A stretch of 20,000 nucleotides of DNA from IMG/VR virus record IMGVR_UViG_3300002498_000029, one strand, 5' to 3'. This DNA comes from an uncultured virus (IMG/VR IMGVR_UViG_3300002498_000029) (lineage: Duplodnaviria > Heunggongvirae > Uroviricota > Caudoviricetes). Within the stretch, counting starts at the first letter, position 1, and every line of letters begins with the position of its first letter. The notes beneath the pieces were generated by a model. It saw only the letters and a program-made list of their open reading frames with translations. It did no database searches and was not told the DNA's origin. This document shows positions 2 to 20,000 of this stretch, one piece after another. Position numbers and translations under genes: made by a program.

Positions 2-1711
2 CTTGGATTAAAAATTCCTAGTACAATATTATATTAGGTATTAAATAATAGTAAATTTTATTATTATGATTCAAAAACAAAAGAGCTATCACTCGGTTGA
101 ACATCTGGATCATTAACAAATATATCATCATCAATATATAGTCAATCAATTATATCATTATATGATTATAGTGAATATAGTACTAATATAATGACAGCTA
201 TGTACTCTAATCCATTTGAGTCAGCTAGTTATATATTTTATAATGGTACACAAATAACAACTGGAACATCTACTACTAATTATATATATCCATATCACTA
301 TCAATATGTACCAGATAATAATATTCCAGTTGGACAATATATATTAGTATATCAATGGCAAGATACTAGTAGTAATTTTTATCCAATAACTTATCAAACA
401 ACAAAAGCTCAAGGGTTAGGATTAATACAAACATATTAGCAAGGTGATTTACATGTTAATGTTGAAAAAATAATATATTCAGCATCATATATGGATTAGT
501 AGACTGTTGGTATAATGTCCCCATTTAATAAACAAGTGATTTGTAGGGATAATAGTATATAGTTATCTTGAGAAAATGCATCATTAAACAGTTTTGATTT
601 AACTTATATATGAATAATACCAAGTGCATCATATAGTAATTTTAGATAGTATAACCCATATACTACATAGAGTATTGTAATATTATATTCTGGATCAGAT
701 GAATCTTATACTGCTAGTATAACTGGATATGATGATGGAGATTATTTATTAGTGTTTCAATCTAAAGATATATATAATAGTTATTCATATATATAGAATA
801 ATCAATATTATAACTAGTCATACACAAGAAATTCAAATTATTATTATGATATATTTAAACTAAAATATAGTGAAAGTGTGTTGTATAAATATGATACTCT
901 GATTCAAACTCCATATTATTACAGCTATACTGACACATCAAAAGCATTTACACCAGTAACCTCAACTAATCAAAATATACCATACCAATTAGCAACATCA
1001 TTTGGAAACAATAACCTATGGTTTTAGTATAATAAATATCCATTAGTAACTAATACCTATGTTACATATAGTGTAGCAGGGTAGTAGTATTATTTAGCAT
1101 ATAATAATCATTTCAGTGCTTTAACGTATATTAAAAAAAATAATAGAACATTAAGAGTTACTGCTAGTGTTGTAAATAATTGAAATTCATAGTCATATGG
1201 TAATATTGTATCAACTTGATTGCCAACAGACCCTACTACATATAAGTTCAATATTACAAATTGACCATTACCACAATAGACAGATACATGATTAGGGGCT
1301 ATTTATACTAGTCCATATTCATCATTAACACCATCTCAAACATATACATATAGTATATCTGGAAGTGATTACTAGTATGACATTACAATAGTATCAACTC
1401 ATAAATGATTTAGACCAAGATTTTACGCATATAAGATATATGATAGTTGAAGATATGCAATGCATCATGGAATGACACCGTTTGGTGTGTATCGTTATCC
1501 ATTTTACTTATATTATACTACTGATGGTTCTGACCCAAGGATAAGTTAGACTGTATATAGTTGTTCATATGATAATTCTGCAATATCTATTCCAACAGAA
1601 AGTGGTGACTATACTTATAAATTATATTTACCATAGCAAACTAGCTCAATTGCAGTGTCTGATATATTAACTAGTTCTTGATTATATACTATAAATTTTA
1701 TAAGGTAGTAA
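2..1711 (+). CDS. 5'-truncated Ser/Thr/Tyr-rich virion structural protein with a C-terminal chitobiase-C/FN3-associated (YYTTDGSDP) module
   Basis: Frame 2 has no TAA from position 2 to 1709-1711 but many in-frame TAG/TGA. It contains the supplied ORF 191..439. Motif LYYTTDGSDP lies near 1510-1540. Confidence 0.75.
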
Positions 1712-1716
1712 TATAA

Positions 1717-3267
1717 ATGGACAATATTATATATATAACTTCATCACAATATATTTATATTGATTCTGGATATAATTAGAATACTGTTGTTTATTATAAC
1801 ATAAATTCTTAGTTTGATCCAGATAATCAATCACAACAATATTCTAGTGGAATACTTATAAATTAGAATATTTTATTGAAAACTATAAACTTCAACAAAC
1901 TTACAGAATAGTATTCAGAAGTTTCATAGTTTCAATTTATACGATTATTACAAAATCCGTATTTATATTATACTGGTTCAAAATGATTTATAAATAAAAA
2001 TTAGGATAATGATGTAATAACAATATATACTGTTGATGGTAGTTATCCAAGTTTGATTAATGGAATAATATATGATGATTCAAAATATTTAACAACTATG
2101 ACATCATAGTAGTTATAGTTACTACAAATTAAAAATATTAGATATAATTCCATTGATAGTGAATTAATTTCGACTCATAGTGTTCCAGTGGCAACATCTA
2201 ATAAAGAATCTGGAATATATTTAACACCAGTAGAGATTGAATTATATTGTCCACTATCTGGTTCATCAGTTTATTATACAACAAATAGTTCTGATCCATT
2301 AATTTATGGTACAGATTATAGTGTAGAACCAAGAGTTCCTGTTCCAAAATATATTTATACTATTATAAAAACTATTGCAACTAAATAGGGGTGGAATAAC
2401 AGTTAGACTTCATCTTATTGATATTTTTATACTAATAAGTTAAATAATGTATAGTTTAATTATACTACTAGTATATATAATAATGATATATTATTACAAC
2501 TAAGTTAGCCAAACACCTCATCCATATATTATACTACTGATAATACTACTCCAACCACATAGAGTTTATTATATTCATAGCCAATATTATTAAATACAGA
2601 TATAACAGTAAAGGTTATGGCGTATAAGTATTTATGGTTAGATTCTAATATAACTTCATAGTCATATTCATTTAAATGCGAACAAGTATCTGCTAGTTAT
2701 TAGTCTGGTGAATATGAATAGCCAATAACTGTATAGTTATCTTCAATTACTTCTAATAGCATAATATTATATACACTAGACGGAACTTTTCCAGTTGATT
2801 CGGGAATTGAGTATTCAGTACCAATTTATATAACTAATAGTGTATAGTTAAATGTAGTTGCTTTAAGATTTGGATACTGGGCATCAACAGTGTCACAATA
2901 TGATTATACTATATCGTGGTCATATAATTATTATTCTAATGATTTTATTAATAATGAATAGTTATATACTTCACATTCAATATTGATAACAGGATCAACA
3001 GATTCATAGAGATATTGATTATATTATAGTAACCAATGAAATAAATTTTAGACCTCAAGTATATAGTATTATACAACAACTGGACAATTTAAAATAGTGT
3101 TATTAGATGATAAATATTTAAACTTATCATTTATTTCAACATCTAATTCGTATAAATTATCTTAGCCGATATATATTAATATAGATAATTTATCAGAATC
3201 AATCTAGACAACATCATCAGTATACAAATTAATAACATATACTGGTAATGTTTACACAACAGGATAA
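1717..3267 (+). CDS. Structural/adhesin-like protein with tandem chitobiase-C (CHB_HEX_C_1/Fn3-associated) repeats
   Basis: ATG 1717 to TAA 3267. Repeats: IYTVDGSYP, VYYTTNSSDP, IYYTTDNTTPTT*SLLYS*PI, IYYTLDGTFP..GIEYSVPI. Contains the supplied ORF 2188..2388. Confidence 0.8.
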
Positions 3268-3286
3268 AAATAGGAGACAAATATAA

Positions 3287-3967
3287 ATGGCAAAACCAAA
3301 TTTAACAGAAACAAGAGCCGAAATAACTACAGGTGGTATTATATCAGCATCACATATATCTAATTTATATGATGCATTAATTAGTGGGTCTAGTGATGAT
3401 AAATTTTTTAATGGAGTAACAATAGCATCAGATAAATTTGCAATGGCTAGATGCTCAGTTAATACATCCGGAATGGCTATTGGAGTTGTATCGTCAGCAG
3501 TTGGATAGAATTCATTTGCAATGGGCTATAACAGCGTAACTAATAATCCTGGTGAATTTGCTATTGGAGTGATCTCCCAAAAAAACCCCGAAGATATTTC
3601 TCAATTTACTGTTAACATTGGTTCATTGGGATTAGCCGTGGATGAAAAAGCCTATTACATGTTTGGACATGACTCAGTTGGATTACACGTTAACAGTCTA
3701 ACAATTGCATATATTAAAGCGAACGGCATTATGTATAATAGTTCCACACTTGATGACACCGCCACAAGCACATCATATTTTAATTATGATAGTATACTGG
3801 CCAATAATACTTTATATTCTGAAAGTGTATCATATTCGAGTGATGTCACCAAGCTTACCTTCACAATGAACCTAGACCAAGATAACCTTTATCTAAAATT
3901 AACTGGTCAATTTAGCACATATTATTTTTCAACAGTAAAAGTATAGATAATACAGTGTGATTATTAA
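3287..3967 (+). CDS. Putative tail fibre/receptor-binding protein with YadA-head-like (Hep_Hag) repeats
   Basis: AGGAG at 3272-3276 precedes the ATG. Supplied ORFs 3287..3508 and 3521..3946 join in one frame across a TAG. Repeats: SGMAIGVVSSAVG*NSFAMGYNSVT..GEFAIG. Ends at TAA 3965-3967. Confidence 0.65.
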
Positions 3968-4072
3968 AATCTTATGGACAATAATTAACGATATGCCAAC
4001 AATAACATACCTTCCAAACTTATATATTAATTATAAAATAAATGGCGGTAATATACTGTATAATAAATTAAT

Positions 4073-4852
4073 ATGATAAAATTAAAACAATATATATTAT
4101 AGTCAACACAAGGTCCAGCGGAAATAAATAAAGAATAGTTTATTAAATTATTCAAATAGAATTGTAAAAATATACACAATAAGTGGGATTATGTATATAG
4201 AGGTAGTAATAATACAAATTAGTTTATATACTGAAAACCCAGGCCTACAAAAAGAAAGTCATCGTGTATATCATAGACTTGTGTAGATAAATTTTATAAT
4301 TGATATTTATCTAATAGTAAAGATTGAGCTAATTATCCAAAAAGAGACAGTAGTATAATTTGTTCAACAGATGAATAGGTAGCAAAAAATTTTGGTTAGC
4401 AGGTATATATAGTTATACCATTTGATAATACTAAATGGGGAGTATGCATATAGACTGATTTATGAGATAGTTTTGAAGAAATAAATGAAATATATAATCA
4501 AGATGATGGTATTTTAAATTTTTCAAATTAGTTAAGATATATTATTGGTGATGTATATTATCCATAGCGAGTTTAGTAGGCATTTAATAATATTAGTAAT
4601 TGGTCATAGTTTTAGTTGTCAAAATTATATTAGTCGAAAATATATAAAGAATATTTATAGAATAAACATAAATATAAAACAATATGATAGTTTATTACTG
4701 TATTAATGTTACCATAGTTAAATAATTTTAAGTTAAGTTAGTAGCCTTGAAAATATAGTGTTAGAGAGGTTTGATCTTAGGGGCCATGTTTAATGATTAA
4801 GCATTCAATACAAAATGAAAAATTCGTATAGGAATTAATAAATAATGATTAA
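4073..4852 (+). CDS. Paralog family member 1 (MIKL leader; YRG/ICST/REVW motifs), possible ADP-ribosyltransferase-like protein
   Basis: MIKLKQYIL*...YVYRG...NFYNWYLSNSKDWANYPKRDSSIICSTD...VIPFDNTKWGVC...REVWS*GPCL. Clearly homologous to the genes at 5797, 6594 and 8082. The function is inferred. Confidence 0.8.
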
Positions 4853-5249
4853 ATTAAAGAATATAGTAATGGAAAAATTTGATTTATAGAGAATGAATAA
4901 CTACACCATTGTAAATACTTGTATTAATAATATTATATAGTATATTAAATTACATTTTAAGTTAAATAGAATATTTTATATTAAATATAATAATATTAAA
5001 ATAAATTAGAAAGATAAAATAGGGTGTAAATTATAGTTAACAATTACTCAATTGATACCACAAGATAAAATTGATAAAAATAAGCTAGTGTTATTAAATA
5101 AGTTAAATAATATTGAAATAGTATTTATTACTCCAACTGAAATACAATATAAATATAGTAATGTTAATAAAATTGATACTGATATTAAACAAATAAAATA
5201 CTAGATAATACAATATATAAGATAGATTTTAGATAAAATAAATGATTAA
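4845..5249 (+). CDS. Hypothetical protein with MIKL leader
   Basis: Starts MIKLKNIVMEK. ATGATTAA overlaps with both neighbours. Open to TAA 5247-5249. Confidence 0.75.
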
Positions 5250-5793
5250 ACTAAGATAGATAATACAATAGAAATTAGACTACATATAGTTTAATAGTCA
5301 AAAAATAATGTATGATAATACAAGTAAAGCTGTTGCATTTATAATTAATAGTGACAACGAAGTATATTATGAATGAGGTGGTTTACATTATAATCTTCAA
5401 GATAAATTAGCTACTGATAATAAATATGTTAAGTGAGATAATTTAGTTTATGGTAGAATATTCTTTGTAATTTATAATCCAGTTATAGTATTTTCAATAA
5501 ATACTTATAGAAATTTTACAAAAAAAATAATAAATTATTGTAAGATATTAAAATAGTAGTTTCCAAAAAGCAGACCATTATCAGATTGGTATATTGCAAT
5601 TGAATAGCAATGTATTGATTATAGAGCTAGATTAAAATTAATAAAGGCATAGTATTCAACTAAATTTACACAATTTTTAAAAAACAATAAATATTATTGA
5701 AGCCATATATAGTTATAGTTTTATGTTCCATTATTGACATTTGAATAGGATATACATAAAATATAGTAGTAGATTATAAAATTGGGAAAATAA
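5242..5793 (+). CDS. Hypothetical protein with MIKL leader
   Basis: Starts MIKLR*IIQ*KLD. Open to TAA 5791-5793 under the recoded table. Confidence 0.75.
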
Positions 5794-5796
5794 ATA

Positions 5797-6594
5797 ATGA
5801 TTAAATTAAAACAATTAATATTATAGACACAAAGTCATAAAATTGAATTAACGAAGTAGTAGTTTAGATAGTTATTTAAATAGAATTGTAAAAATATTAA
5901 ATATATAGATGATTGCGTATACCGTGGATGATGAACATCAGAACAATTTATTAAATTTCAATCATCATATGCTGAAAGAATTTCTAGATGAGTACATGGT
6001 GGAGAGATGGACTCTTATTATAATTGATATTTATCTACATCAGATGATTGAAAAGAATTTCCAAGAAGAAATAAGAGTTTAATATGCACAACTGATATTG
6101 CTAATGCTAGTAATCGAGGTAAAATATTTTATGTATTTCCATATGATAATATATAGTGGGGTATATGCCCAAAAAAAGATATTTGATTTTCATTTGATAC
6201 TTATTTATCTACTCTTACTAATACTAATTTTGTTGGTGCTGGAGTTTTATCAGATATAATGGAATAGTTATCTAAATTACAAAATTATCCCAAATTAACA
6301 CAGGATGATTTCAATTATACTACGTTTAAATAGAAATAGTTCTATTGAATTGATCAAATTTTAAATACATCAGTATTTAAAAATAATGAATAGTATACAC
6401 TTGAACAAAAAAATAAACTAATATACTATTTCTTTAAACAATTATTTAATCCACAAAGTAATTAGTTTTTAATAAGCACTAAACCATGAGATTATGAAAA
6501 TAGAGAAGTGTGATCATAGGGACCATGTTTACTGATACAATATGGTAAATAGACTATGGATTATTTAAAATAGTTAATAGAAGAAAATAAGTAA
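5797..6594 (+). CDS. Paralog family member 2, possible ADP-ribosyltransferase-like protein
   Basis: MIKLKQLIL*...CVYRG...YYNWYLSTSDDWKEFPRRNKSLICTTD...VFPYDNI*WGICP...YENREVWS*GPCL. TAATG overlap with the next gene. Confidence 0.8.
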
Positions 6595-7355
6595 TGATAA
6601 AATTAAAACAATTAATATTATAGTATAAATCAGCTACATCTGAAATATCTAAGTAGTAGTTTATATAGATGTTTGAAGATAATTGTTATAATATTAAACA
6701 TCTAAATAATTATGTATATAGGGGCATACCGTCTAATGCGCGGTATCTATATTTTAATTCTAAGAAAACCACTATATAGCGACCGTCTTCAATTTAGCAT
6801 TCACAAAATATTTTAAAGACGGAAAGCTTTTATAATTGGTATATGTCTAATTCTTAGGATTGAAAAAATTATCCTAAAAGAAATAAAAGTCTAATATGTA
6901 GTACTTCTACAAAATATAATAGATTATACGGAAATAGATATATAGTTATTCCATTTAATAATACAAAATGAGGCATATGTCCAGCGGATGATTTGTGAGA
7001 TAGTTTTCATAATAAAATACTCTTTACTGATTTATTACAATAGTTGTCTTCTCATGACTTATTAAAAGATATATATCCATATTTAGATTAGAATAGTATT
7101 AATTCAATTAATATTAATGATTTAGATCCAATTAAATATTCTGAATTATTTAAAATATTTGATAGATATTATGGTAAAACTAACTGATAGAAATTTAAAT
7201 GGTTTTGAAATCCTCAAAATACTGGTTTTTAGGTAAGTTAGACTCCATGAGAATATGATAATAGATAGGTTTGAACTTAGGGGTCTTGTATTTTATTTAA
7301 ACAGAATATATATAATATAAAACTTTTAGAATAGTTAATATAGGAAAATAATTAA
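6594..7355 (+). CDS. Paralog family member 3, possible ADP-ribosyltransferase-like protein
   Basis: MIKLKQLIL*...YVYRG...FYNWYMSNS*DWKNYPKRNKSLICSTST...VIPFNNTKWGICP...YDNR*VWT*GSC. Confidence 0.8.
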
Positions 7356-8089
7356 TGATTAAATTAAAATAGATAATAATCAAATAGGGTATAAATGATC
7401 CTAATATATTTAAAGCAATATTTATCTTAGGTAGTCCAGCTAGTGGCAAATCAACATTAGCTAAAAAAATATTAGGGAGATAGAAATTAAAACAACATGA
7501 TGTCCATAATATGTATTTATCGTTTAGCCCTACTGGATTAAAGTATTTAAATATAGATGATGTATTCTAGAGATTATTATTAACTACTAAATCTAAAACA
7601 AATTTTAACTAGCTTACAGAGGAATAGTATAAATAGTTAATATCTGCACCAGATTCTAAATATAATAGAGCTAGTAGATTAACTAATATAAGAAGAAATA
7701 ATTATGTATAGGCTAGACTTGGATTAATTATTGATAAGACTGGAGCTAATGCAGATAAAATAGCAGATCAAGTATAGTAGTTATAGTATTTAGGATATTA
7801 GTGTTTTTGTATTTATATTAGTTCAGATTTATAGGAAGCAATTACTAGAAATATGAATAGGTTATAGAGAAGATTAAAAGAATAGGATATTGTTAATTGT
7901 TGAACTAGAGTTAATTAGAATAAAGAATAGTTGCAATAGATATTTGGATATAATAATTTTTATAATTTTATTAATAATAAATATTATTAGTAGCAAATAT
8001 CTTTATTGAATAAAAAAATATCTGCATTTTTAAATAAACCAATAACTAATAATATTGCATTAAATTGGATATAGAGTCAATATGATTAA
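7355..8089 (+). CDS. P-loop kinase, zeta-toxin/AAA_33-like phage family, with MIKL leader
   Basis: *GINDPNIFKAIFILGSPASGKST (Walker A), NIDDVF*, RLGLIIDKTG (Walker B-like) and AITRNMNR. Resembles the EGxxDPxIFKAxFLAGGPGSGKS family of large phages as I recall it. Confidence 0.85.
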
Positions 8090-8861
8090 ATTAAGATAGC
8101 TAATATTATAGGCTTCAATACCATATAATAAAATATCAAGTAAAAAATTTTAGTAGTTATTTAATACTAATTGTAAAAACATAACAAGTTTAGATCAAGT
8201 AGCATATAGAGGTATGCGTAATATTGGTAAAACAGGGTTATTTATACCGACTAATTCAATTAGAAAATCTTATAAACATAAAAATTATAAGACGGATTCT
8301 TTTTATAATTGGTATTTATCTAATAGCCCTAGTTGAAAATAGTATCCTAAGCGAAATAAAAGTATTTTTTGCATGACTAATTATAATGATGTAACCGGTT
8401 ATTATGATCCGACTGAGCAAAAAATATATATTGTGATACCATACGATAATGTATAGTTTGGAGTTTGTTCAGAATTTGATTTAGCCCTCTCTTTTAAAGA
8501 CTTTAACGTCGTTGGATTAAGTAGGTGGTTATTAAAGTTATTATAGGATTTATAGTTGTTGTTTATATTAGAATCAACAGATACTATACAAGGAATATAG
8601 ACTATGTCAAATACAATAAAAAATGATTAGACTATTGATAAATCTTATTATTCATATGTCTTTTAGCGAGTTAAAAAATATAATACATTTAAAAATTTTA
8701 TATTAACAACATTTAGTCCAAGATATAATTAGTTTAAACTAACAACTGATTTGAGTTCATTTAATAATAATTAGATTTGATCTTAGGGGCCATGTTTACT
8801 ATTACAACATACTGATTAGAATATAGAATATTTACAACAGCTGATAACTAAAAATACTTAA
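8082..8861 (+). CDS. Paralog family member 4, possible ADP-ribosyltransferase-like protein (more diverged)
   Basis: MIKLR*LIL*...VAYRG...FYNWYLSNSPSWK*YPKRNKSIFCMTN...VIPYDNV*FGVC...NNN*IWS*GPCL. Ends at TAA 8859-8861. Confidence 0.8.
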
Positions 8862-8887
8862 ATAATATTTAAAAAAATAAAAGAATG

Positions 8888-8904
8888 ATATATTTATATA
8901 TATA
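8888..8904 (+). promoter_or_regulatory. Putative phage promoter motif ATATATTTATATATATA (copy 1)
   Basis: Lies in a short intergenic gap just before ATG 8907. An identical 17-mer occurs at 11888-11904, also intergenic. Confidence 0.45.
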
Positions 8905-8906
8905 AT

Positions 8907-9308
8907 ATGAAAAAAGCTATTAAGTTTAAGATATATAAGAAACTAAGAGAAATAAAGAATAGAAAATTAAATATTTTATCAGTATAGATGAAATAGAGAA
9001 TGACTATACCATATAACAATTGAAGAAAACATGTATTTGAAAGAGATAATTATCAATGCCAAATATGCGGCAGATCTCATATAAGATTATAGGCTCATCA
9101 TATTAAATCATTTAAGTTATTTCCAAATATAAGACTCGATATAAATAATGGTATAACATTATGTTCAGCTTGTCATTATATGTTTCATAAAAAATATAGT
9201 AAAGTAATATTTCCAAATATAACTACTATATGATAGGATAAATTAATAGTTAAAAAATTTAAGGATAAAGTAAATAATGAAAAAAAATTAGTTGAAATAG
9301 TTAATTAA
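8907..9308 (+). CDS. HNH endonuclease
   Basis: YNNWRKHVFERDNYQCQICG...L*AHHIKSF...DINNGITLCSACHYMFH shows the CxxC, HH, N and CxxCH pattern. The conserved W is encoded by TGA. Confidence 0.9.
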
Positions 9309-9726
9309 AGAATAGATCAAAAAAATATTATTATAGTAGCCAATCAAATCTGATAAATCTGCATATAATACTAGAGTAATGTTTAGTGCAGGCGGTGGTA
9401 AAGAATTTGGTAAATGAATGATGGAATAGCTAAATAGAAGTTTTTTTGAAAAAAATATAGCTAATACCAAAGTATTACAATAGTATATAAATTAGCATAG
9501 AGATTAGATACAAAATGTAACTGATTCAACTATTAAATATTTTTTAAATTAGATTTAGCAAATAATCAATAGAGCCTAGATTAAGAAATCTAGATGTAGA
9601 CCAGATTAGCAACATATTTGTAATAAATATGAAAAAGAAAAAAATTAGTCGTTACAAAGTTATTTTTATAATTTTTATTTAGCAAGTATTGGTAAAGGTT
9701 CAATAGACTCATATAAGAAGTACTAA
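9277..9726 (+). CDS. Hypothetical protein with MKKxELK leader
   Basis: Starts MKKN*LK*LIKE*IKKILL**. Open to TAA 9724-9726. Confidence 0.75.
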
Positions 9727-9731
9727 TAAAT

Positions 9732-10466
9732 ATGAAAAAAACATAGTTAAAACAAATAATTAAAGAATAGATTAAATATATATTACTATAGAATAAGAGA
9801 TATGATCATATAAGTAGAAATAACTATAGATTAAAAATGTTAAAATTACCATAGAATAGTAAATTTAAATCTACAAAATAGGATGTTTTAGCTATTTTAA
9901 GTTCATAGTAGAATATTAAGCAATCTAAATATGAATTAGACGATATAGTTATGCTAATATTATTATATTAGATAATTGACTATCCTAAAGATTTATATTA
10001 GAAATAGTGGTTTAAATCATATTCTCCAGAATTTCAAAGACAATTATTTTTATATATGTAGAATATGTTTATATATTATTTTAAAAAGGTATAGAAAACT
10101 ACGAGTAGAGGATTAAATACTACTAGTATGACAGATATGACATAGATTATTAAATTAGTTTTATCTAATATATAGGTATAGCTTCCAATAACATATTAGC
10201 AAATATTTGAGGCAGTAGAAGATTATGATTGAAATCTTAGAGATTTATAGATAAGACATAACGGTACTTTGTAGAATTGAAAAATAAATCTACAGTTTTA
10301 TATTTCTGGTCATGCTATAAATAACTAGAGGTCAAAACTACATAAAGATGATAGAATTATTCATTGAAATAATAAATTAATATATATATATTTATTATAG
10401 CCTGGCGTCAAAAACCAAAAACAATTTATAGTTTTTACATAGAAAAACTAGAATCCATTTGGATAA
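9732..10466 (+). CDS. Hypothetical protein with MKKxELK leader
   Basis: Starts MKKT*LKQIIKE*IKYILL*. Open to TAA 10464-10466, with a TAATG overlap into the next gene. Confidence 0.75.
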
Positions 10467-10750
10467 TGATATTTATAAATAAACTATTACGTGATAATAC
10501 TGGTGTATCAAGTAAAAGATTCGTTACATTAGTAACATTTATACTTATATGTATAATAGCTGTAGTAGACTTATTTACACCGTTAACAATTAGTTAGTTT
10601 ATATTTAATGGTTTAATGTATTTATGTTCAATTGGGTTAGGAACAATATTAGCATAGGATGTTTTAACTAAAAACAAATATAATAAAAATAATAAATAGT
10701 AGGAGATACCATAGTTAAATGAAGAAACAATAGCTTAGACAACTAATTAA
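10466..10750 (+). CDS. Small two-transmembrane protein, holin-like
   Basis: SSKRFVTLVTFILICIIAVVDLF and FIFNGLMYLCSIGLGTILA are two hydrophobic helices, followed by a charged tail. Confidence 0.6.
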
Positions 10751-10958
10751 ATAGATTTACTAGTAGGTAATTAAATAGTATGATAAATAGACCCCTTAGG
10801 ATGATAAATATATTTATAATATAATTACAAAAGTTATTACTGATGGTAGAAATTCAAATTATCCATTAGCAATGTGTCTTAGAACCGATTTTGGAAATAC
10901 ACATTGATTTGACATAAGTCTAGATAAATTATACTAGATTGCAAAATTATTTAAATAA
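10719..10958 (+). CDS. Small hypothetical protein with MKKxELR leader
   Basis: AGGAG at 10701-10705. Starts MKKQ*LRQLIK*IY**VIK*. Ends at TAA 10956-10958. Confidence 0.7.
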
Positions 10959-10979
10959 TTATAAAGGAAATAAGAAAAA

Positions 10980-11447
10980 ATGAAAAAATCAGAACTAAAA
11001 AAATTAATACAATAGGCCTATCAAGAAGTGATATTATAGGCGTAGGACAATGAAGAGGATATAGACTTAAGTATATTAGATTAGATGTTTGACGATCCAA
11101 ATATTAGATATACTAATGCAGATTGCTCACTAATATGCATAGCAAAACATCCAAAATTCGGTGATATGCCAGTATACAATTAGACTATTAAAGCTGATAG
11201 AGATATTCAAAAGGCTGGAATATAGAAGTTTGTTACTACAGCTGGTAGTGGATTTAAATTTAAAGCTAAAAAGTTTAATAGCGCATAGTAGTTAATTAGT
11301 AATGCAAAGTAGCTGTGTAAAAATATTAGAATAAAAAAAGATGGTATTAGTATGAAGGATCTTGCTACTAAATTAAATAAATGGTATGATAAGATGATAT
11401 TTGATGCTGCTAAACAATCTGGGATAGATTTAAGAAGAAGTAAATAA
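10980..11447 (+). CDS. Hypothetical protein with MKKSELK leader
   Basis: AAGGA upstream. Starts MKKSELKKLIQ*AYQEVIL*A*DNEE. Ends at TAA 11445-11447. Confidence 0.75.
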
Positions 11448-11449
11448 CT

Positions 11450-11800
11450 ATGAAAAAATCAGACTTAAGACAATTAATAAGATAGATGACAGAACAATAG
11501 TTTAGTAAAATAAATAAAACGAGTACTAGTATTGTTAAGTAGTAGCCAACTATGCGTGGTTTTGCCGGAGATGATGATGGATTTATTGACGATGATACAT
11601 TATATAATTAGGTAATACCGAATGCAATTAAATATGCTATACATGACGCTATTCAATATAATGATAAAATATGAGATAGATTAGTAATTAGTATAAAAAC
11701 AGATCTATAGGAATACGGAATTACTGATTATAAAGATGTAATATCATAGGAAAAATTATTAACTAAATTGTAGTAGTACGGATAGAATCTTATTTATTAA
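11450..11800 (+). CDS. Hypothetical acidic protein with MKKSDLR leader
   Basis: Starts MKKSDLRQLIR*. Ends at TAA 11798-11800 and is followed by a terminator hairpin. Confidence 0.75.
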
Positions 11801-11825
11801 AAATAGCAATCAAAATATATAACTT

Positions 11826-11869
11826 AAGAGTAATTAATATCTAAAAATATTGATTACTCTTTTTATTTT
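11826..11869 (+). terminator. Rho-independent terminator
   Basis: 15-bp stem AAGAGTAATTAATAT / ATATTGATTACTCTT (one G-U pair) with a 6-nt loop, followed by a T-rich run, just after a TAA stop. Confidence 0.75.
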
Positions 11870-11887
11870 AAATATTTTTTTACTTCA

Positions 11888-11904
11888 ATATATTTATATA
11901 TATA
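11888..11904 (+). promoter_or_regulatory. Putative phage promoter motif ATATATTTATATATATA (copy 2)
   Basis: Lies between the terminator and the AAAGGAAG + ATG 11927 start. Identical to 8888-8904. Confidence 0.5.
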
Positions 11905-11926
11905 GTATAGAGAAAGGAAGTATAAC

Positions 11927-12547
11927 ATGCCAAGAATAGATATGTCAAAGGTTAAAACAACTGATGATGTTGCACAAATATTAACATAGTCTAAGCCACA
12001 AAAAATATATATGTCACCCAAAGAAGCTTATACCCAAAGAAAATAGGGATAGATATGGTTATAGGATGGAAAATAGTGGACTATTAAAAATGGATTACGT
12101 ATAACAACTAATTTAATAAATAATAAGAATTAGACATATAATAGTTGAACTTGTCCAAAATGTAATAAGTTTATGTCACATTGGTTAGATAAAAAGATTA
12201 TGAAGACGGCTGGCCATTGTTTTGACTGTGATATTAAAATGTAGTCATAGATGAGATTAAATGGTACTTGATAGTAGTATAATTAGAATATAAAAAGATA
12301 GAATTTAAAATCTTATTTAAAAGATCAAAAATAGCAAATGTTATAGTTAATAAAAAGTGTTAGTAATAAAATACAATTTATACAGAATTCAGATGGTGGT
12401 ATATAGTCTTGGCATGTAAGTTAGTAGACTATTGCTAAAACTATGAATAATTTAAATAAACAAATATAGTAGATTGATTAGATGCTAAAAACCATACAAT
12501 AGTATTAGATATAGCATAAAATAGTTAAATAGAATGAAAACATATAA
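11927..12547 (+). CDS. Putative Zn-binding phage protein (CxxC...CxxC) with coiled-coil C-terminus
   Basis: RK*G*IWL*DGK*WTIKNG, CPKC, HCFDC, KM*S*MRLNGTW**Y. AAAGGAAG upstream. Confidence 0.8.
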
Positions 12548-12707
12548 AATAAAAAATTTAGGACTACTTATACAAGATAATATTGCAACTCTATTATCAA
12601 GTAATTGTGTGTTTATTGCTTAGGATAATGATATTATTTTATAGTTTGATACATAGTTATAGTTAATAGATTACATAAATTAGAATGATATTTAGATAAA
12701 TGATTAA
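12534..12707 (+). CDS. Small hypothetical protein
   Basis: 57-aa frame that fills the gap and overlaps both neighbours (ATGATTAA at its 3' end). Confidence 0.55.
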
Positions 12708-13125
12708 ATTACGTAATATTATACTATAGATATTTGGATAGAGTACTAGAAGCATTACAGTAAATACTAAATAGGTCATATTTAACAAATATCCTAAATA
12801 TTGATATAGCTAGTTTATAAATACCCTAAAGCAAATAATACCGGTAAGTAATAAAAATACGTATGAGTTAGACTAGATTTTAAATAAGTTATTAAATAAT
12901 GATGATCCATATAGTTATTACTTACATATAGTATAGTAGTATAATAATATCAAATATATATATTTTTTAATTCAATTTAACAATAACATAAACATCGAGG
13001 CTAGAAAATATCATTAGTTTCAACAATGGTTTTTTTATATCAATGGTAAAAAACATATGAATAAATTTCAAACAAAAAAATATTTAAGTAAAATAATAAA
13101 GGATTTAAATAATAATGGCAAATAA
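12700..13125 (+). CDS. Hypothetical protein with MIKL leader
   Basis: Starts MIKLRNIIL*IFG*. Ends at TAA 13123-13125. Confidence 0.7.
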
Positions 13126-13465
13126 TACAACAAAATACTTTTTAAGTGAATCCTATAGAAATCCAAATATAGTACAGGGTTCTGCCCCAATGGATCTATA
13201 GAGATTTCCGCAATATCAAGCGTTAAATGCATTAGTTGGTATTGGTGTAGGTAGATAGTGAACTGCATCGTCTATTTCACAACCGGTTTATGCAATACAA
13301 GCTATAACAGATACAACATTTACAGAATTAGTAGATGGAACTACAGATATTATTGAAATAGCAACTACCTTAGAAATATTGGGCCAGGGGGTTATATATG
13401 GTAATTTTACTACAGCGTCTATATCAGCTGGATTAATTTGTGCGTACTATAAATTACAGGAATAA
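13115..13465 (+). CDS. Small beta-rich putative virion protein
   Basis: MANNTTKY...VYAIQAITDTTF...GVIYGNFTTASISAGLICAYY. Ends at TAA 13463-13465. Confidence 0.7.
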
Positions 13466-13475
13466 TTAAACTATA

Positions 13476-14090
13476 ATGATAGGTATAGGACTTTGGCTTA
13501 GAAATAGAGTATTAGGTGGATCAGCTTTATTTAAAACTTGATTAACCTCTTGATATACAACTAAGAATAACGATACAATTTTAACTAATAAAGTAGATGA
13601 AACCTTAAATGCTCATCAAGAAGACTTTATATGCGGTAATATGGTAGATACTAATTATAAATTATTTATTAGTACATCTATTACTAGTATAACATATAGT
13701 GGGTCTGGAACATTTAGTGTAAGTGGAAGTTATTTTGTTACTTGTTCAGCTATTGGTTCTATATATGAATTATATGCTTATACTGGATCTGATTTAGTTG
13801 GTCATTATCCTATATGTGAATCTAGTGGTATTAATATATATAATATTGCTCAAAATAATTATCATGCTAAAATATATTATGGTACTGTTACAGCATCTAG
13901 TGCGCAAGCTACTTCTTTTTGAACTGGTTTACAATTGTAGTATAATCCTTATCAGAATGGTGCTCAGTATTCAAATTAGAGTATTATTATACCAGCTAGT
14001 GGTAGTGTATCGGCTATTGGCCAAGCATTAACACATGTAGATGGTAATTGGATAATGAGATTGGGACAAAGTATTAATTTTGATGATTAA
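13476..14090 (+). CDS. Putative virion structural protein (MIGIGL start; partial LamG-like YPxxExSG motif)
   Basis: Extends the supplied ORF 13641..13922 in both directions across TGA/TAG. Motif LVGHYPICESSGINIYNI. Confidence 0.7.
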
Positions 14091-14108
14091 TAAAGAGAGA
14101 ATTGAATA

Positions 14109-14696
14109 ATGATACAAGCAACATACGATCAACTTAAAACAATAGCAACTCGCAAATCATATAAATGATTTACAGATATATACGATTTAAACGTATGGGG
14201 TATAAGAAATTCAAGTAGAATAGCTAATGCCTTTGATGATACTTTAGCCATAGCATATATAGATGCCAATAAAAACAAAAGAATATTTACATGCCCAATG
14301 ACAGTTGACCCAGGATTATATTACTTAAAGAACCCATTAAACCACAAGGGTTGTGCAATTATACCAGAAGGACAATACTTAGGTTTATGAATACTAGGAC
14401 TACATAAAGGTTATACTGCATTAGCCCAAAGAAAAGCTATTAAAGTATTTAGAGATAATGATAAAAATAATTAGTTGGGTGGGCAATTACAAACAATCTA
14501 GTAGCTAGGCGGGTTTAATTTACATAGAGCTTTATAGAATGGAATAACTAATACAGTAGATAAATTTAGTGCTGGTTGTCAAGTAGTACAAATACCAGAA
14601 GATTTTAATTATGTAATATCACTAGTAAAGCTTCAAGACAAATATATTAAATCTAAAATAGTATCTTATACACTTATATCAGAAAGGGAACTTTAA
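14109..14696 (+). CDS. Putative peptidoglycan-acting enzyme/endolysin, YkuD (L,D-transpeptidase)-like fold
   Basis: LNVWGIRN..NAFDD..TVDPG..GCAIIPEGQY..GLHKGY..VFRDND..FNLHRA..VDKFSAGCQV. The H...SAGC pattern resembles the YkuD catalytic motif. The function is inferred. Confidence 0.65.
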
Positions 14697-14702
14697 TAAT
14701 AA

Positions 14703-16004
14703 ATGATAACTTCATCAATATAGATTTGAAACAAGTTAAATATAGTAGGTAATACTAGTGATCTTCCATAGATATGATTATCTGATATACAAGATTCAAT
14801 ATATTATGATTCAGATTATCCATATAAATGAAATGTATTCTAGATGGATATTTAGTATTTAAGATTATTTATAAATGATGGGTATTCTGGAAATATTAGT
14901 TCTACATATGAATCAGGTAGTGATTATACTAGTGTAATATTTAATCATTTAAAATAGTGTTATATATAGAGACCTGTTGCATTAAGTGCTACTAATATAA
15001 CTGATGTTAGCTTTACTGCTAATTGAAGTAGTGTTGTTGGTGCTACTAGTTATTAGATTGATATTGCTACTGATAGTTTATTTAGTAATATTATACAAAG
15101 AATTAGTTGTGGTAATGTGATATTATATAATGTTACTGGGTTAACTAGTAATACTACTTATTATTATAGAGTGAGAAGTATTAGTAGTGGTGGAGTTAGT
15201 GGAAATAGTGAAGTGGTAACACAACTTACATACGCCACTGGAGCGCCTGCTTACTTTGCTAGAATGACAACTCAAGGTGATACAACATATAAGGCCAAAA
15301 TAAGTAGTTTTATTGGTGCATTAGAAAGTGCAGGTGTTTGAGCATCATTAGATTCATTACACTTATTTGCCAATAAGGACGATTACACAGATAATATACC
15401 GGCTTCATTTATAAATATGATAAACCCAACTGATACTATAGCGGCTAGAACAGGAGTTAGTGGTTCAAATTTGACGTATACTACAAATCAGGGGTGGTTG
15501 GGAGCCTCCAATGCTGCTATTGATTTAAATCAATTATTAACTAATAGAGCAAAATATAGTTTAAATAGTGGCTCTATGTTTGTCTATGTTTATACAACCA
15601 CCGCAGCAGGATATGTGGCATAGATTGGAACTTATATTGGAGCATCTCAAGCATCTATAATGGATTGTAGAGTTGATGGTGATAAGATGAGACTTTACCT
15701 CAATGGTGGTATGTCTGATACCGTGAATGCATTACCTGGTGCCGGAGTTGGGCTTTTCTCTCTTAATAGGACTGCTGCAAATAACATAGATGTTTACAAA
15801 AATGGTACTTTCGTGGAGTCTCTGGCAAATAATAGCAGCGCAATCCCAACCGGTAATGTCTATGCATTGGCAGCTAATATAAACAATGTCATCGCCAATA
15901 CAGCTACTGGTCGGAGAATATCTCTATGTGGATTTGGTGCACAAATGGATGCTACCAAGCAAGCTGCACTCTATGCGGCATTTATGACATATCTAACAGG
16001 ATAA
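14703..16004 (+). CDS. Virion protein with an FN3 domain and a C-terminal lectin/LamG-like module
   Basis: Joins supplied ORFs 15117, 15417 and 15660 in one frame. FN3 signature ATNITDVSFTANW(TGA)SSVVGATSY*IDIATD...VTGLTSNTTYYYRVRS. Confidence 0.8.
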
Positions 16005-16038
16005 TATACATAATTAATCATACTGGAATATATAACTA

Positions 16039-18786
16039 ATGCAAAAAAACGATAAATACATTGTAGACATAAAAACATATGATAAATCACTAACGGATAG
16101 TGGTTCATTTCCATATACTCATGGTTTAACTACATAGTAGTCTGCTAGAGTAGTAGCTAAAATGAAACTAGAAGATGATACCTTTATTAATATTAGTGGA
16201 TCACAATAGTTAGTACCAGCTAATGGATCATTAGTAAGAGTATTATCATTTGATTTTGAACCACATAAAGGTTATGATACTATTTTAACTATGAATGATT
16301 ATGATACAGGTTCTGGTAATATGTATAGTAGTAGAGTTATAAAATATTAGTATGGATCAATAAATGTTTATAATTAGAATAATATTAGATTAACTTCTAG
16401 TATATTATCATATACTTATGGTAGATAGGATTCTAATACTATTCCATTAAATACTAGAGGTAATTGTTATGTTTAGTTAGATACATTATTTAGTGTTAAA
16501 GGTAATATTATATTAGGAACTACTTCTAGTAATTATAGTATTAGATCATTAAGAGGATTTAATGTCAATTTTAGTTATAGTGGTAGCACAGATAGAACTA
16601 ACTTTATGAGGTAGTTGTCATATTTAAATGATATTAAATCAACTTGATCTTATTCATAGTTATGCCAATTTAGTTGGGGTATGTATTATGGTAGAGTAAT
16701 AACTGATCCTAGTGCTAGTGTATAGACTGGCAGTGCAAGATTATTATACAATCAAATTTAGAATTTAGACTTAATACCATATACTAAATTTTTATGGTAT
16801 GGTTAGGCTGGTACAGTTGTTAGTCAAAGTAGAGTTAGTAAAATATATAGTATAAATACTGGTAGTGTAGTAGACGGTACAAGTTCTGGTATTTATAGAC
16901 CATATTATGCTGGTACTATTGCTCCAATTTAGAAAAATAATTTATTAGTAGACTATTCTTCATCTCAATATTATTATATAAGTCATTCAAATATATCATT
17001 TGGAACTACTTCTCCTTGAACATTAGTTTCAGTTATTGGTTGACATGGACCTAAAGTATATAATGCTAATGGAGTATAGACCCAATTAGTATATGGTAAT
17101 AATGGTTCAGCAATAAATTTATCAGTATCTGGTAGTACCAAAATTCAAATATCATCATCAACAGTAAATAGATAGTTTTTAACTAATACTTCTATTAAGA
17201 ATTATCTTGCAACTAGAGCTATGATAGCAATTACATATGCTGGTGATGTGAGTGGATCTACTACTACTTATTTTAATGGAGTTAGCCAATCAGTATCTAC
17301 AGGTTCTAGATATGCTTTTGACTTTAGTGGATTCTTAAGTGGAACAGGTACTAGTACTAATAATTATTTAGGTAGATATTATTATCACCATATTATTAGT
17401 AAATCTTTATCACAAGATGAAATAACTGCTCATTATAATGTACTTAGATCATATTATCCTTAGATTTAGTCAGTAAATATAACTACTCAAAGTTGATCAA
17501 CTCATAATTTAGGTGTAGTTTCAGATAGAAGCGGAAGTGTTATAAATAATGTTAATTGAACAAGTTCTGTAGTTACTAGCGGAGTATGTAGTTCATCACT
17601 ATTTGACGATTCTGATTTATATACATAGTCTGGAACAACATAGGTAATTGATGGTATTGGTTATTTTACAGCGTCAAATAATACATATATTACAAAATCA
17701 TATACTGGTCATTCATTATTGAATAATTATTATTTATTATCAGCTAAATGTTAGTCGTGAGATACTGGTTCTGCAAAATTTATAATAGGAACAGTTTCAT
17801 CATCTATATTTGTACCAACTGCTAGTAATATACATTCATATTATATAAAAGCTAATACTGCTAATAGTTCATTTGGTATTGGTGGTGTAGATTATTTAAG
17901 CGGATCATTTAGCAGTATGTCAATATCAAGAATAGGCTGAAACGACATAGGTAACTTATACTCATACTTAATAACAACAGGTTCATACACTCACTATGAT
18001 GCTTTAAAATAGTGTGCAGCTTGAAGATATTATAATGATGATGCAAATACCTATGCATTATATGGTAAACTATATAATAAATATGCTAAAATGTTAATCT
18101 AGTCCTACCCACCATTATGTACATCTCCTACTTCAGCATCATATGTACCTATGTATCAAATACCATTATTAGATGGTACTGGTATAAATACTTTAAAAAC
18201 ATATTCAGGTTCAACATTAAGAGTATCAAATTCACTATACTGATCTTCATCAATAAATGATACTAATACTACAGGATTATCTTTAATTGGATCAGGATGA
18301 TGTGATGCTACTGGATCATTTAGACATGCTACTCAAAGATGTTACTTATGATCAAGAAATGTAACTTCATCAACATATTTGCCCATAACTTCATCAATAG
18401 GATAGAATAGACCATATATAATTTGAAGAAGTTCTAGTTTTATTACTGATGGAGATGATTCAACAACTTAGGGATATGCTATAAGATTAGTAGATACAGG
18501 TATAGATTATAATATAATAAATAATTATACTAGTAGTTAGTGTAAAGATAAATTAAATAGAATAACATATGATATAGAGGGTTTAACTGCTAGCTTAATG
18601 ACTTATTATAATAGTAGTGTAAATGGATCAATTATACCAACATAGATAAACTTTAGGAACTTTAGTAGTTCATTATATACAATATAGCAAATACAAGCAG
18701 CTAGTCCTAATTTAACTGGTAGTGCTGTTTAGCAAGCTAACTATTGATTAGTACAAGTTAATAATAGAATAGATTTACAAGGGTAA
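16039..18786 (+). CDS. Large (~915 aa) virion/tail protein with a LamG-like segment and an interrupted Fib_succ_major-like domain
   Basis: No in-frame TAA over 2.7 kb. LamG-like ITY..TYFNG..KSLSQDEITAHY. Fib_succ_major-like P*I*SVNITTQSWSTHNL, AAWRYYNDD..YGKLYN, NTTGLSLIGSG, YLWS, GYAIRLV. Confidence 0.75.
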
Positions 18787-18795
18787 TAATATAAA

Positions 18796-19329
18796 ATGGG
18801 AATAAAGATAAACGATACAACTGTTACGTTAAAAACTATAGCAAGGACTTCAAATGGATCATTAATATTGCCCGTTAGAACTTCTGATGGATATACCTAC
18901 CAAATATTTAATTCCGGAAGTACTGTACTAAAGGTTAATTAGACTGTATATGTAAATTTTTATATTACAGGTTCAGTTACTTCAAGTATTGCTACTGGTA
19001 GTAATATATTATTAAATGTAAGCTCATATTCAATAACAGCATCAACAGCAGATAGTTCAGCATCTCTTAGTTACCCATCAATATCACAATCAACATCACC
19101 TACTACAACTATAACATATACTAACTCAATAGCTACAGCATCAATATATACACCTACTACAAATAGTACTATATATTATAGTACATAGAGTTTAACGCCA
19201 AATACATCATCAAACTTGTATACAGCTCCAATTTATTTCAGTCAATCTTGTATTATTAGTGCAATATCATATAGAGATTATTGAGTAGCATCAACTATAA
19301 CAACTGCATCATGCGTAATTTAGGAATAA
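18796..19329 (+). CDS. Ser/Thr-rich structural protein with a C-terminal chitobiase-C module
   Basis: TIYYST*SLTPNTSSNLYTAPIYFSQSCIISAISYRDYWVAS. Ends at TAA 19327-19329. Confidence 0.75.
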
Positions 19330-19337
19330 TAATATAA

Positions 19338-20000
19338 ATGTCAACAACCATAAAAACATCACTAAATTTAAACCATATTAATAGTACTACCAAATAGTGA
19401 GATAATACTCATCCTTCTTTTACTAGTAGTCCAATAGTAGTACAATATATATCATTACTTAAGAAACAAGGGTGTGTAAATTTACCTAGATTAAATAGTT
19501 AGTATTTATTACTATTATTACAAAGTATGTATCTTGATACTAGTATAAGTGGAGATATATATATTACTAATTATTTAGATCCTAATATATCTGTTATTGA
19601 TATTATAGCTGCTACTGGTAATGTTAGTGGTAGTAGAGTAGAACAGATTAGGTATTATATAAATATATTAGCAAATAGACAAAAAATTGGTGTGTATATA
19701 AATAATATTGTTGTATATTATCCTGCTGTTTTCACAATTGCAGCCGAAGCAAGTTTCGGCTTCAGGGTAAGACTATCTGAGCTTGGCAATGTAATCTCAA
19801 CTGGCGACGTAAAAATTGGGACATCAGATGTCCCAACTGGCACGGAAATAAAAATCAACGCTACTGATGATTATGCCACAAACACATCTGCGATAGAAAC
19901 CACAATCTATGTGTTGGGTGGCACTGGTGGCGGAACGATTGTGTTTCCAAAAAAGTCAAAAATACATTATCTATACATTTCCAGCCCAGGTTTAGGAGCT
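19338..20000 (+). CDS. 3'-truncated putative structural protein
   Basis: ATATAAATG start context as at 1717 and 3287. The frame stays open to the window end across TAG/TGA. Confidence 0.65.

Follow-up and report, generated by a model that had tools for sequence, protein, structure and literature searches.

How are the genes of a viral DNA read when table 11, the ordinary prokaryotic code, leaves almost no long reading frame in it? The question is raised by a stretch of 20,000 nucleotides from an uncultured virus (IMG/VR record IMGVR_UViG_3300002498_000029, Caudoviricetes), referred to as a whole as the window, which under table 11 contains six open reading frames (ORFs) of at least 80 amino acids (aa). 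It had been proposed from the letters alone, in what we call the original prediction, that both TAG and TGA are sense codons in this phage-like genome and that TAA is its only stop. Our results indicate that the double stop recoding in the window is real and represents a new form of phage stop-codon recoding, and that the phage genes very probably use a code with TAA as single stop, TAG as glutamate and TGA as tryptophan.

When TAG and TGA are taken as sense, the + strand is tiled by 27 genes (25 ORFs of at least 94 aa and two small ones), and a recount gave the same picture as first proposed: TAA closes 26 of the 26 visible gene ends, and neither TAG nor TGA closes any. We measured cover as the fraction of a strand lying in stop-to-stop frames of at least 100 codons. 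On the + strand of the window it is 0.10 under table 11, 0.17 with TGA alone as sense, 0.55–0.58 with TAG alone as sense and 0.97 with TAA as the single stop, a gain in coding density that bears out the proposal. The − strand read with TAA as single stop has a cover of 0.15, and in 200 dinucleotide-preserving shuffles the cover averages 0.071 and never exceeds 0.156; the longest frame has 916 codons in the window versus at most 216 in the same shuffles. Among the 6407 internal codons of the 25 larger genes there is no in-frame TAA, whereas the other two frames hold 344 and 505. Long TAA-free frames are the least expected kind, because TAA is the commonest stop triplet in AT-rich DNA, and the window has a guanine-plus-cytosine (G+C) content of about 25%. 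By comparison, 187 related loci of at least 5 kb from phages or metagenomes have a median table-11 cover of 0.92, none below 0.6, and the gain from reading TAA as the only stop is at most 0.29 among them versus 0.87 in the window.

The two codons are used throughout. The 27 genes contain 393 of them in frame (313 TAG and 80 TGA), TAG occurring in all 27 genes and TGA in 22. Over the 6569 codons of these genes, GAA is used 112 times, GAG 16 times and TGG 29 times, and with the meanings argued for below the recoded triplets would be the majority codons, TAG accounting for 313 of 441 glutamate codons and TGA for 80 of 109 tryptophan codons. The share of glutamate codons written TAG is 0.63, 0.75 and 0.64 in three successive gene blocks. 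As a separate matter, base composition is uneven along the window, with 21–25% G+C in the block of small non-structural genes (4000–13000) and 28–33% in the structural and wall-enzyme block (13000–20000); the TAG share is unrelated to this split at about 13000. From about 3 kb to its end the window has a positive GC skew.

The frames obtained in this way also look like genes. They start with ATG, lie on one strand with gaps of a few bases or overlaps of 1–32 bases, and many of their starts are preceded at 8–14 bases by purine-rich motifs of the Shine-Dalgarno type. Protein lengths fit those of homologues (195 aa against 189–245; 244 aa against many of about 240–256; 253–265 aa against 252–267). 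That recognisable domains run through both codons, as had been claimed, was seen again when Pfam matches were scored with X at every TAG and TGA: Fn3_assoc and CHB_HEX_C_1 reached E values of about 1e-27 (in gene 2, PF13287 at 6.9e-28 and PF13290 at 1.6e-27) and HNH reached 1.4e-8, and the matches to AAA_33 and fn3 were weak and under their cut-offs. Promoter-like sites were not enriched over shuffles (208 versus 195 ± 12.5), nor were terminator-like sites (2 versus 3.0 ± 1.4).

A simpler account would be that the in-frame stops come from sequencing or assembly errors, or that the window is a dead element full of nonsense mutations, and low depth in a single sample would leave room for it. Logan contigs of four sequencing runs, all from one sample labelled hydrocarbon metagenome, align to the window in 40, 38, 46 and 52 pieces with no differing letter or indel listed; the 32 displayed pieces have zero mismatches or indels, at a word depth of about 2–5. 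The bases of the TAG and TGA codons are thus identical in the contigs of all four runs, which rules out a consensus slip, the error that the original prediction had named as its own possible undoing. Four separately built contig sets without a differing letter, 393 in-frame TAG and TGA codons against no in-frame TAA, gene lengths that fit homologues, and the position of TAG and TGA on conserved glutamate and tryptophan columns (see below) together make error or decay scarcely credible. Among the sequencing runs listed with the window DNA there was no RNA dataset.

The meaning of the two codons was inferred in the manner of Codetta, by placing X at each TAG and TGA, aligning homologues and summing log-odds per column for the 20 amino acids. 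For the P-loop kinase gene (gene 9; genes are numbered along the window and listed below), HMMER gave 1213 homologues at E ≤1e-3, from which 150 listed representatives were used in 163 aligned stretches. As a control, the method recovered the standard amino acid for 33 of the 35 sense codons with at least three positions; both misses were marginal (GCC, n=4, T 1.8 versus A 1.7; TTG, n=3).

For TGA the columns agree closely. In the kinase, 126 of about 150 aligned homologues have W at the sole TGA column, and the two TGA columns of the wall-enzyme gene (gene 23) are W in 20 and 16 of its 22 closest homologues; over these three positions the log-odds are +16.0 bits for W versus +4.2 for Y. When all genes were compared by tblastn with 242 loci, TGA met W 249 times, H, the next, 71 times and G once, and in an alignment of the paralogue family described below it met W 76 times. 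These alignments indicate that TGA is tryptophan. Glycine, the meaning of TGA in table 25, was considered and rejected on the single aligned G against 249 W and on the +16.0 bits for W, and cysteine was rejected on the alignments and log-odds.

For TAG the evidence is broader and also more graded. Over the 21 TAG positions of the kinase the log-odds are +24.6 bits for E, +17.5 for D, +4.0 for K and −1.7 for Q, and over the 25 positions of kinase and wall enzyme together +27.1 for E versus +8.4 for D. Three single TAG columns of the kinase have E in 128, 119 and 91 sequences out of about 150 homologues, and at two TAG columns of the tblastn comparison all 84 of 84 and 76 of 77 aligned residues are E; over all genes in that comparison TAG met E 537, K 273, D 261 and Q 97 times. 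Two of the four TAG columns of gene 23 are E in 16 and 20 of the 22 closest homologues, and the other two are variable. The paralogue alignment brings together the four window genes, seven tandem paralogues of phage Atu_ph07, two library proteins and one gene of LR756508; the residues that stand opposite TAG in it are E (85), S (75), D (57), K (51) and Q (11). The REVW motif of this family has a glutamate that 10 of 10 outside homologues share, and of the four window paralogues two encode it by GAA and two by TAG. Against three phage homologues, the TAG codons of gene 18 meet E 19, D 11, K 9 and Q 2 times, and in the HNH gene an alignment to PDB places a TAG on the glutamate preceding the His pair of the solved IscB HNH domain. 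Scored against phrog_12810 over five genes, the summed bits are 499.1 with TAG read as E, 493.2 as D, 483.6 as K, 482.6 as Q and 474.4 as S, E being the best reading in four genes and D in one. Counting TAG also raises glutamate from 2.0% to 6.7% of codons, near the median of 6.0% in 147 kinase homologues. The margin for Glu over Asp is modest in some tests and that over Gln is large in all of them. As far as homologous columns can tell, then, TAG is glutamate and not the glutamine of published recoded phages. Readings of TAG as Gln, Lys, Asp, Ser or pyrrolysine were each rejected on the log-odds and the near-invariant Glu columns.

It could still be asked whether the double recoding is real and TAG nevertheless means glutamine, which would amount to codes 15 and 4 combined. 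Glutamine is the published phage meaning of TAG (10.1101/2021.08.26.457843; PMC9523058; here and below, statements on published work are limited to the accessible parts of each source), Q and E are chemically close, Q is present in some TAG columns, and two proteins of the library, P0069 and P0070, have glutamine at TAG positions of the window. These two short proteins are the closest relatives of the kinase in that library (P0070 66% and P0069 51% identical), and their composition is unusual. Among its 181 residues P0069 counts 23 Gln but neither Glu nor Trp; it carries Q on the family's E columns, and its last residue directly precedes the family's Trp column, the place of a TGA in the window. 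For the other 147 kinase representatives the Glu content has a median of 6.0% and a minimum of 1.2%, and Gln does not exceed 6.8%. A protein with no E in 181 aa is better explained by a gene caller that wrote Q for TAG. The glutamine reading would also leave Glu at 2.0% and lift Gln to about 7.4% of codons, and it runs against the E columns of 84/84, 76/77 and 10/10 and the negative score of Q over the 21 kinase positions, the same method having recovered CAA as Q at +35.8 bits. We consider it quite unlikely. More generally, the kinase relatives P0069, P0243 and P0070 have 0–3 Glu and 11–24 Gln in 134–181 residues. They look like proteins of the window's code that were called with TAG as Gln and TGA as stop, which suggests that a code with TAG as Glu and TGA as Trp may be common to a small clade and mistranslated in public protein sets.

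How does such a code compare with those already described? The claim that simultaneous use of TAG and TGA as sense in the same genes fits no standard prokaryotic table held against all 27 NCBI tables in Biopython, none of which combines TAA as single stop with unambiguous sense use of TAG and TGA; tables 31 and 28, which are eukaryotic and ambiguous, come closest. That recoded phages are described with one reassignment likewise agrees with the phage-recoding surveys, which, in the parts accessible, test or report single reassignments (10.1101/2021.08.26.457843; PMC13037316; Mgcod preprint). Searches of open-access papers and bioRxiv yielded no case of a natural phage or bacterium that reassigns TAG and TGA together. 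The accessible part of the Mgcod preprint mentions two phages that carry both TCA and CTA suppressor tRNAs, and no genome that uses both codons as sense.

The closest phage precedents are those with TAG as Gln (code 15; crAss-like, Lak and other phages) and those with TGA as Trp (code 4) (10.1101/2021.08.26.457843; PMC9523058). The window resembles them in being uncultured, in using in-frame stops as sense, in its low table-11 density and in the alignment of TGA with Trp. It differs from code-15 phages in reading TAG as Glu and in having TGA as sense too (80 in frame), and from single-reassignment phages in general in recoding two stops at once in the same genes, with the recoded triplets as majority codons in all 27 genes and not concentrated in late genes. 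Its source is labelled hydrocarbon metagenome and not gut. Among bacteria, table 4 (Mycoplasma, Spiroplasma) reads TGA as Trp and table 25 (Gracilibacteria, Absconditabacteria) reads it as Gly (10.1101/2021.08.26.457843). Like table 4 bacteria, the window is AT-rich and prefers TGA to TGG as the main Trp codon (80 versus 29); unlike bacteria of either table, in which TAG is a stop, it has TAG as its main Glu codon. The Ochre strain, in which release factor 1 was deleted, release factor 2 redesigned and the Trp tRNA changed, shares with the window one stop, freed UAG and UGA and a bacterial translation setting. The changes made in Ochre illustrate the problems that a natural system has to overcome. 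As far as the accessible account goes, Ochre is engineered and uses UAG and UGA for non-standard amino acids, whereas in the window, a natural sequence, they stand for Glu and Trp.

In its codon meanings the window is most like table 31 of Blastocrithidia, where UAG and UAA are Glu, UGA is Trp and UAA is also a stop (PMC12153298), in that TAG is Glu, TGA is Trp and TAA is a working terminator. This likeness could be taken to mean that the window comes from a eukaryote or a eukaryotic virus with a Blastocrithidia-like or ciliate-like nuclear code. Unlike table 31, which also reads TAA as Glu, the window never has TAA in frame (0/6407), and its phage genes have a bacterial-type layout, with overlaps of 1–32 bases or tiny gaps on one strand and purine-rich motifs upstream of many starts. 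Its proteins have their counterparts in PHROG families and in tailed-phage genomes, and one of them is a peptidoglycan-type enzyme. A eukaryotic origin is thus highly unlikely, and the likeness to table 31 is convergent and not due to shared descent.

The 27 genes from which the phage can be placed are the following, with counts of in-frame TAG and TGA.

Gene 1, 2..1711 (+): 5'-open, 569 aa; Ser/Thr/Tyr-rich and structural-looking, no family in Pfam or PHROG; 18 TAG, 10 TGA; ends with TAA.
Gene 2, 1717..3267 (+): 516 aa; Fn3_assoc/chitobiase-C-type repeats, fibre- or adhesin-like; 26 TAG, 4 TGA.
Gene 3, 3287..3967 (+): 226 aa; weak YadA-head-like repeat under the Pfam cut-off; 2 TAG, 0 TGA.
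Gene 4, 4073..4852 (+): 259 aa; paralogue 1, with the phrog_12810 N-terminal domain (PHROG E 1.3e-25); 22 TAG, 7 TGA.
Gene 5, 4845..5249 (+): 134 aa; start MIKLK; 6 TAG.
Gene 6, 5242..5793 (+): 183 aa; 13 TAG, 3 TGA.
Gene 7, 5797..6594 (+): 265 aa; paralogue 2, phrog_12810 N-terminal domain; 14 TAG, 9 TGA.
Gene 8, 6594..7355 (+): 253 aa; paralogue 3, Glu of the REVW motif written TAG; 16 TAG, 7 TGA.
Gene 9, 7355..8089 (+): 244 aa; P-loop kinase (phrog_12810 positions 261–463); 21 TAG, 1 TGA.
Gene 10, 8082..8861 (+): 259 aa; paralogue 4, family-invariant E231 written TAG and W233 written TGA; 15 TAG, 2 TGA.
Gene 11, 8907..9308 (+): 133 aa; HNH endonuclease (Pfam HNH 1.4e-8; phrog_119 3.4e-15); 4 TAG, 2 TGA.
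Gene 12, 9277..9726 (+): 149 aa; start MKKN-TAG-LK; 14 TAG, 1 TGA.
Gene 13, 9732..10466 (+): 244 aa; no match in the phage genome collection; 22 TAG, 3 TGA.
Gene 14, 10466..10750 (+): 94 aa; hydrophobic, membrane-like; 6 TAG.
Gene 15, 10719..10958 (+): 79 aa; MKK-type start, zero GAA/GAG; 8 TAG, 1 TGA.
Gene 16, 10980..11447 (+): 155 aa; 9 TAG.
Gene 17, 11450..11800 (+): 116 aa; 10 TAG, 1 TGA.
Gene 18, 11927..12547 (+): 206 aa; four-Cys protein with homologues in large Flavobacterium and Microcystis phages and LR756508; 24 TAG, 2 TGA.
Gene 19, 12534..12707 (+): 57 aa; 6 TAG.
Gene 20, 12700..13125 (+): 141 aa; start MIKLR; 8 TAG, 1 TGA.
Gene 21, 13115..13465 (+): 116 aa; 2 TAG, 1 TGA.
Gene 22, 13476..14090 (+): 204 aa; 2 TAG, 3 TGA.
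Gene 23, 14109..14696 (+): 195 aa; cell-wall enzyme of YkuD fold (L,D-transpeptidase/carboxypeptidase); 4 TAG, 2 TGA.
Gene 24, 14703..16004 (+): 433 aa; fn3 and a C-terminal domain common to large Sinorhizobium phages; 8 TAG, 5 TGA.
Gene 25, 16039..18786 (+): 915 aa; Ser/Thr/Asn/Tyr-rich; none of 8000 scored candidates was a homologue, and Pfam, PHROG and NCBIfam gave no family; 28 TAG, 13 TGA.
Gene 26, 18796..19329 (+): 177 aa; Fn3_assoc (Pfam 8e-8); 3 TAG, 1 TGA.
Gene 27, 19338..20000 (+): 3'-open, 221 aa visible; 2 TAG, 1 TGA.

The window is a piece of an uncultured tailed phage, probably one of large or jumbo size. In PHROG, the four paralogues and the kinase match phrog_12810, gene 11 matches HNH families and gene 23 matches phrog_3000 and an 'endolysin' family, and the gene block is bordered by fibre-like genes that carry Fn3_assoc, chitobiase-C and fn3 domains. 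The nearest GenBank matches have 27–41% identity and are all large phages: for the paralogue family Agrobacterium phage Atu_ph07 (490 kb), the uncultured LR756508 (484 kb) and Ralstonia phage RsoM2USA (344 kb), and for others the Sinorhizobium phages phiN3 and phiM (188–207 kb), Flavobacterium immuto phages (160 kb) and crAss-like and Bacteroides phages. The wall-enzyme gene matches 24 phage records, and other genes match phages of 131–207 kb. No terminase, portal or major capsid protein was recognised among the 27 genes, which may amount to a minor portion of the whole genome. A scan of the window proteins against NCBIfam gave two weak P-loop matches alone, far under the cut-off.

What would be needed to decode such genes? 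UAG would require a transfer RNA (tRNA) that accepts glutamate and has the anticodon CUA, and UGA a tryptophan tRNA whose anticodon is UCA; because CUA is one base from the Glu anticodon CUC and UCA one base from the Trp anticodon CCA, a Glu-type tRNA(CUA) and a Trp-type tRNA(UCA) would be expected. Termination would work at UAA, with no effective action at UAG or UGA. The two bacterial release factors both recognise UAA; release factor 1 also recognises UAG, and release factor 2 also UGA. Both second specificities would thus have to be lost, blocked or outcompeted, and at a density of about one TAG per 21 codons even a moderate rate of release at UAG would be disastrous. The phage would most likely supply the tRNAs itself from genes outside the window. 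Large phages frequently have a sizeable set of tRNAs. Suppressor tRNAs are found in published recoded phages (10.1101/2021.08.26.457843; PMC13037316; Mgcod preprint), and in TGA-recoded phages a 'code-change' operon includes release factor 1 (10.1101/2021.08.26.457843, Fig. S6 legend). A phage release factor 1 cannot serve both codons, however, because it would cut at UAG.

We weigh a code with TAA as single stop, TAG as Glu and TGA as Trp against several points that count against it. Within the 20-kb window there is no tRNA, transfer-messenger RNA, release-factor or synthetase gene, and no Rfam match at E ≤1. The DNA is known from one sample at a depth of about 2–5, and the four runs may be the very source of the window and so not independent of it. 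Both amino-acid meanings are read from homology only; Asp is the runner-up for TAG, the PHROG margin is small (499.1 versus 493.2) with D best in one of five genes, and variable TAG columns also meet K, D, S, N and T. Scans of viral_contigs, metagenome_contigs and genome_contigs gave no DNA relative with the same code. Finally, all 27 genes need the new code, whereas published recoded phages keep their early genes readable in the host code (10.1101/2021.08.26.457843; Mgcod preprint), a departure that raises the question of how infection would start in a standard-code host. The claim is accordingly limited by the unseen decoding machinery and by the single low-depth sample. As to the contig scans, those based on alignments gave at least 80, at least 80, at least 80 and 2 loci, with best identities of 62% (wall enzyme) and 38% (kinase), all of them readable in table 11, and a 38-base stretch from the window end is absent from viral_contigs.

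The difficulty of the early genes could be solved in either of two ways: a standard-code early region lies outside the window, or the host already reads this code. The second would mean that an AT-rich bacterial lineage reads TAG as Glu and TGA as Trp and that the phage or prophage merely follows it, in which case the double reassignment stays real. The even TAG share of the three gene blocks (0.63, 0.75, 0.64) has the look of an established code, as opposed to a timed switch; all 27 genes depend on the code, published recoded phages keep an early set that the host can read, and hosts with TGA as Trp are a known kind (tables 4 and 25). Nevertheless, 20 kb is a part of a perhaps far larger genome in which a standard-code early block may lie elsewhere, and the scan of genome_contigs was without a close bacterial relative, giving 2 distant hits among 133 pattern matches. 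A Codetta screen of more than 250,000 genomes reportedly found no bacterial TAG reassignment, which we do not count as evidence here. On balance, we regard a code inherited from the host as possible though doubtful. Whichever way the code arose, we think it likely that natural bacterial-type translation here runs on a single stop, the phage either rebuilding UAG and UGA decoding together with UAA-specific termination or inheriting the code of an undescribed bacterial lineage.

Why TAG should be preferred is a further question. It exceeds GAA as a Glu codon (313 versus 112), and AT pressure cannot account for this preference. Selection for genes that are unreadable to other cells or phages, or for independence from the host glutamate tRNA, may have favored it.

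These results matter first for how phages are found. Surveys and gene callers try tables 11, 4, 15 and 25, one stop at a time, according to the accessible parts of 10.1101/2021.08.26.457843, PMC13037316 and the Mgcod preprint; because the window is fragmented under each such table (cover 0.10, 0.17, 0.55–0.58), phages of this kind would be mis-annotated or discarded, and P0069 and P0070 look like products of exactly such a gene-calling error. Freeing both UAG and UGA was, in the searchable papers and in so far as these are accessible, reached by engineering alone (Ochre). The tRNAs and the termination factor, whether of the phage or of its host, could if recovered become naturally evolved tools for codon reassignment, and the window would, if the code is as we read it, represent a second, independent origin of the Blastocrithidia-type meanings (PMC12153298).

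Several features of the genes deserve mention in their own right. Gene 23 matches phrog_3000 at 4.9e-29 and the 'endolysin' family phrog_33083 at 2.3e-15 and has 65 homologues. Its predicted model has a mean local confidence score (pLDDT) of 92.5, and its top Foldseek rows are L,D-transpeptidases and carboxypeptidases at probabilities of 0.96–0.99 and E values of 1.4e-3 to 3.5e-3, just above the 1e-3 line. Thus the protein is 'endolysin'-like by PHROG, yet its model would make it of the YkuD-fold type and not a classical lysozyme or amidase. The family is very widespread, with at least about 585 relatives in each of two collections; a search of its profile against PDB sequences found none. Because gene 23 is a YkuD-fold wall enzyme, the phage host most likely has a cell wall, which argues, by inference, against the wall-less hosts among table 4 bacteria.

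Between 4073 and 8861, four tandem paralogues of about 255 aa (4073, 5797, 6594, 8082) stand beside the P-loop kinase (7355), and the 788-position profile phrog_12810 holds both domains, that of the paralogues and that of the kinase. Agrobacterium phage Atu_ph07 (L002) has at least seven such paralogues in tandem. Residues R43, S94 and E231 are invariant in the family and recall what we take to be an R-S-E triad. The model of gene 10 (8082) has a pLDDT of 69.9 and weak Foldseek matches, none at E ≤1e-3; about 40 of the 50 rows have the ADP-ribosyltransferase fold with Z of 2.3–4.6, and the top row is an uncharacterised protein with Z 6.5. A paralogue query with X at the recoded codons matched two proteins alone in the protein library.

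The first ten residues are nearly identical in 13 of the 27 genes, several of which are otherwise unrelated, and follow the pattern MIKLK/R..I.. or MKK.ELK.LI.E (starts at 4073, 4845, 5242, 5797, 6594, 7355, 8082 and 12700; and at 9277, 9732, 10719, 10980 and 11450). Similar N-termini occur in the phage homologues P0066, P0067, P0070, P0073 and LR756508, and the common start may be a shared N-terminal signal or a translation-start context.

Lastly, contigs of several runs of the same sample diverge from the window at shared points (8560, 10982, 11480, 19605 and 19701), beyond which their sequence is unlike it. They may represent strain variants or a related phage in the sample, and the continuation of one of them is itself rich in TAG.

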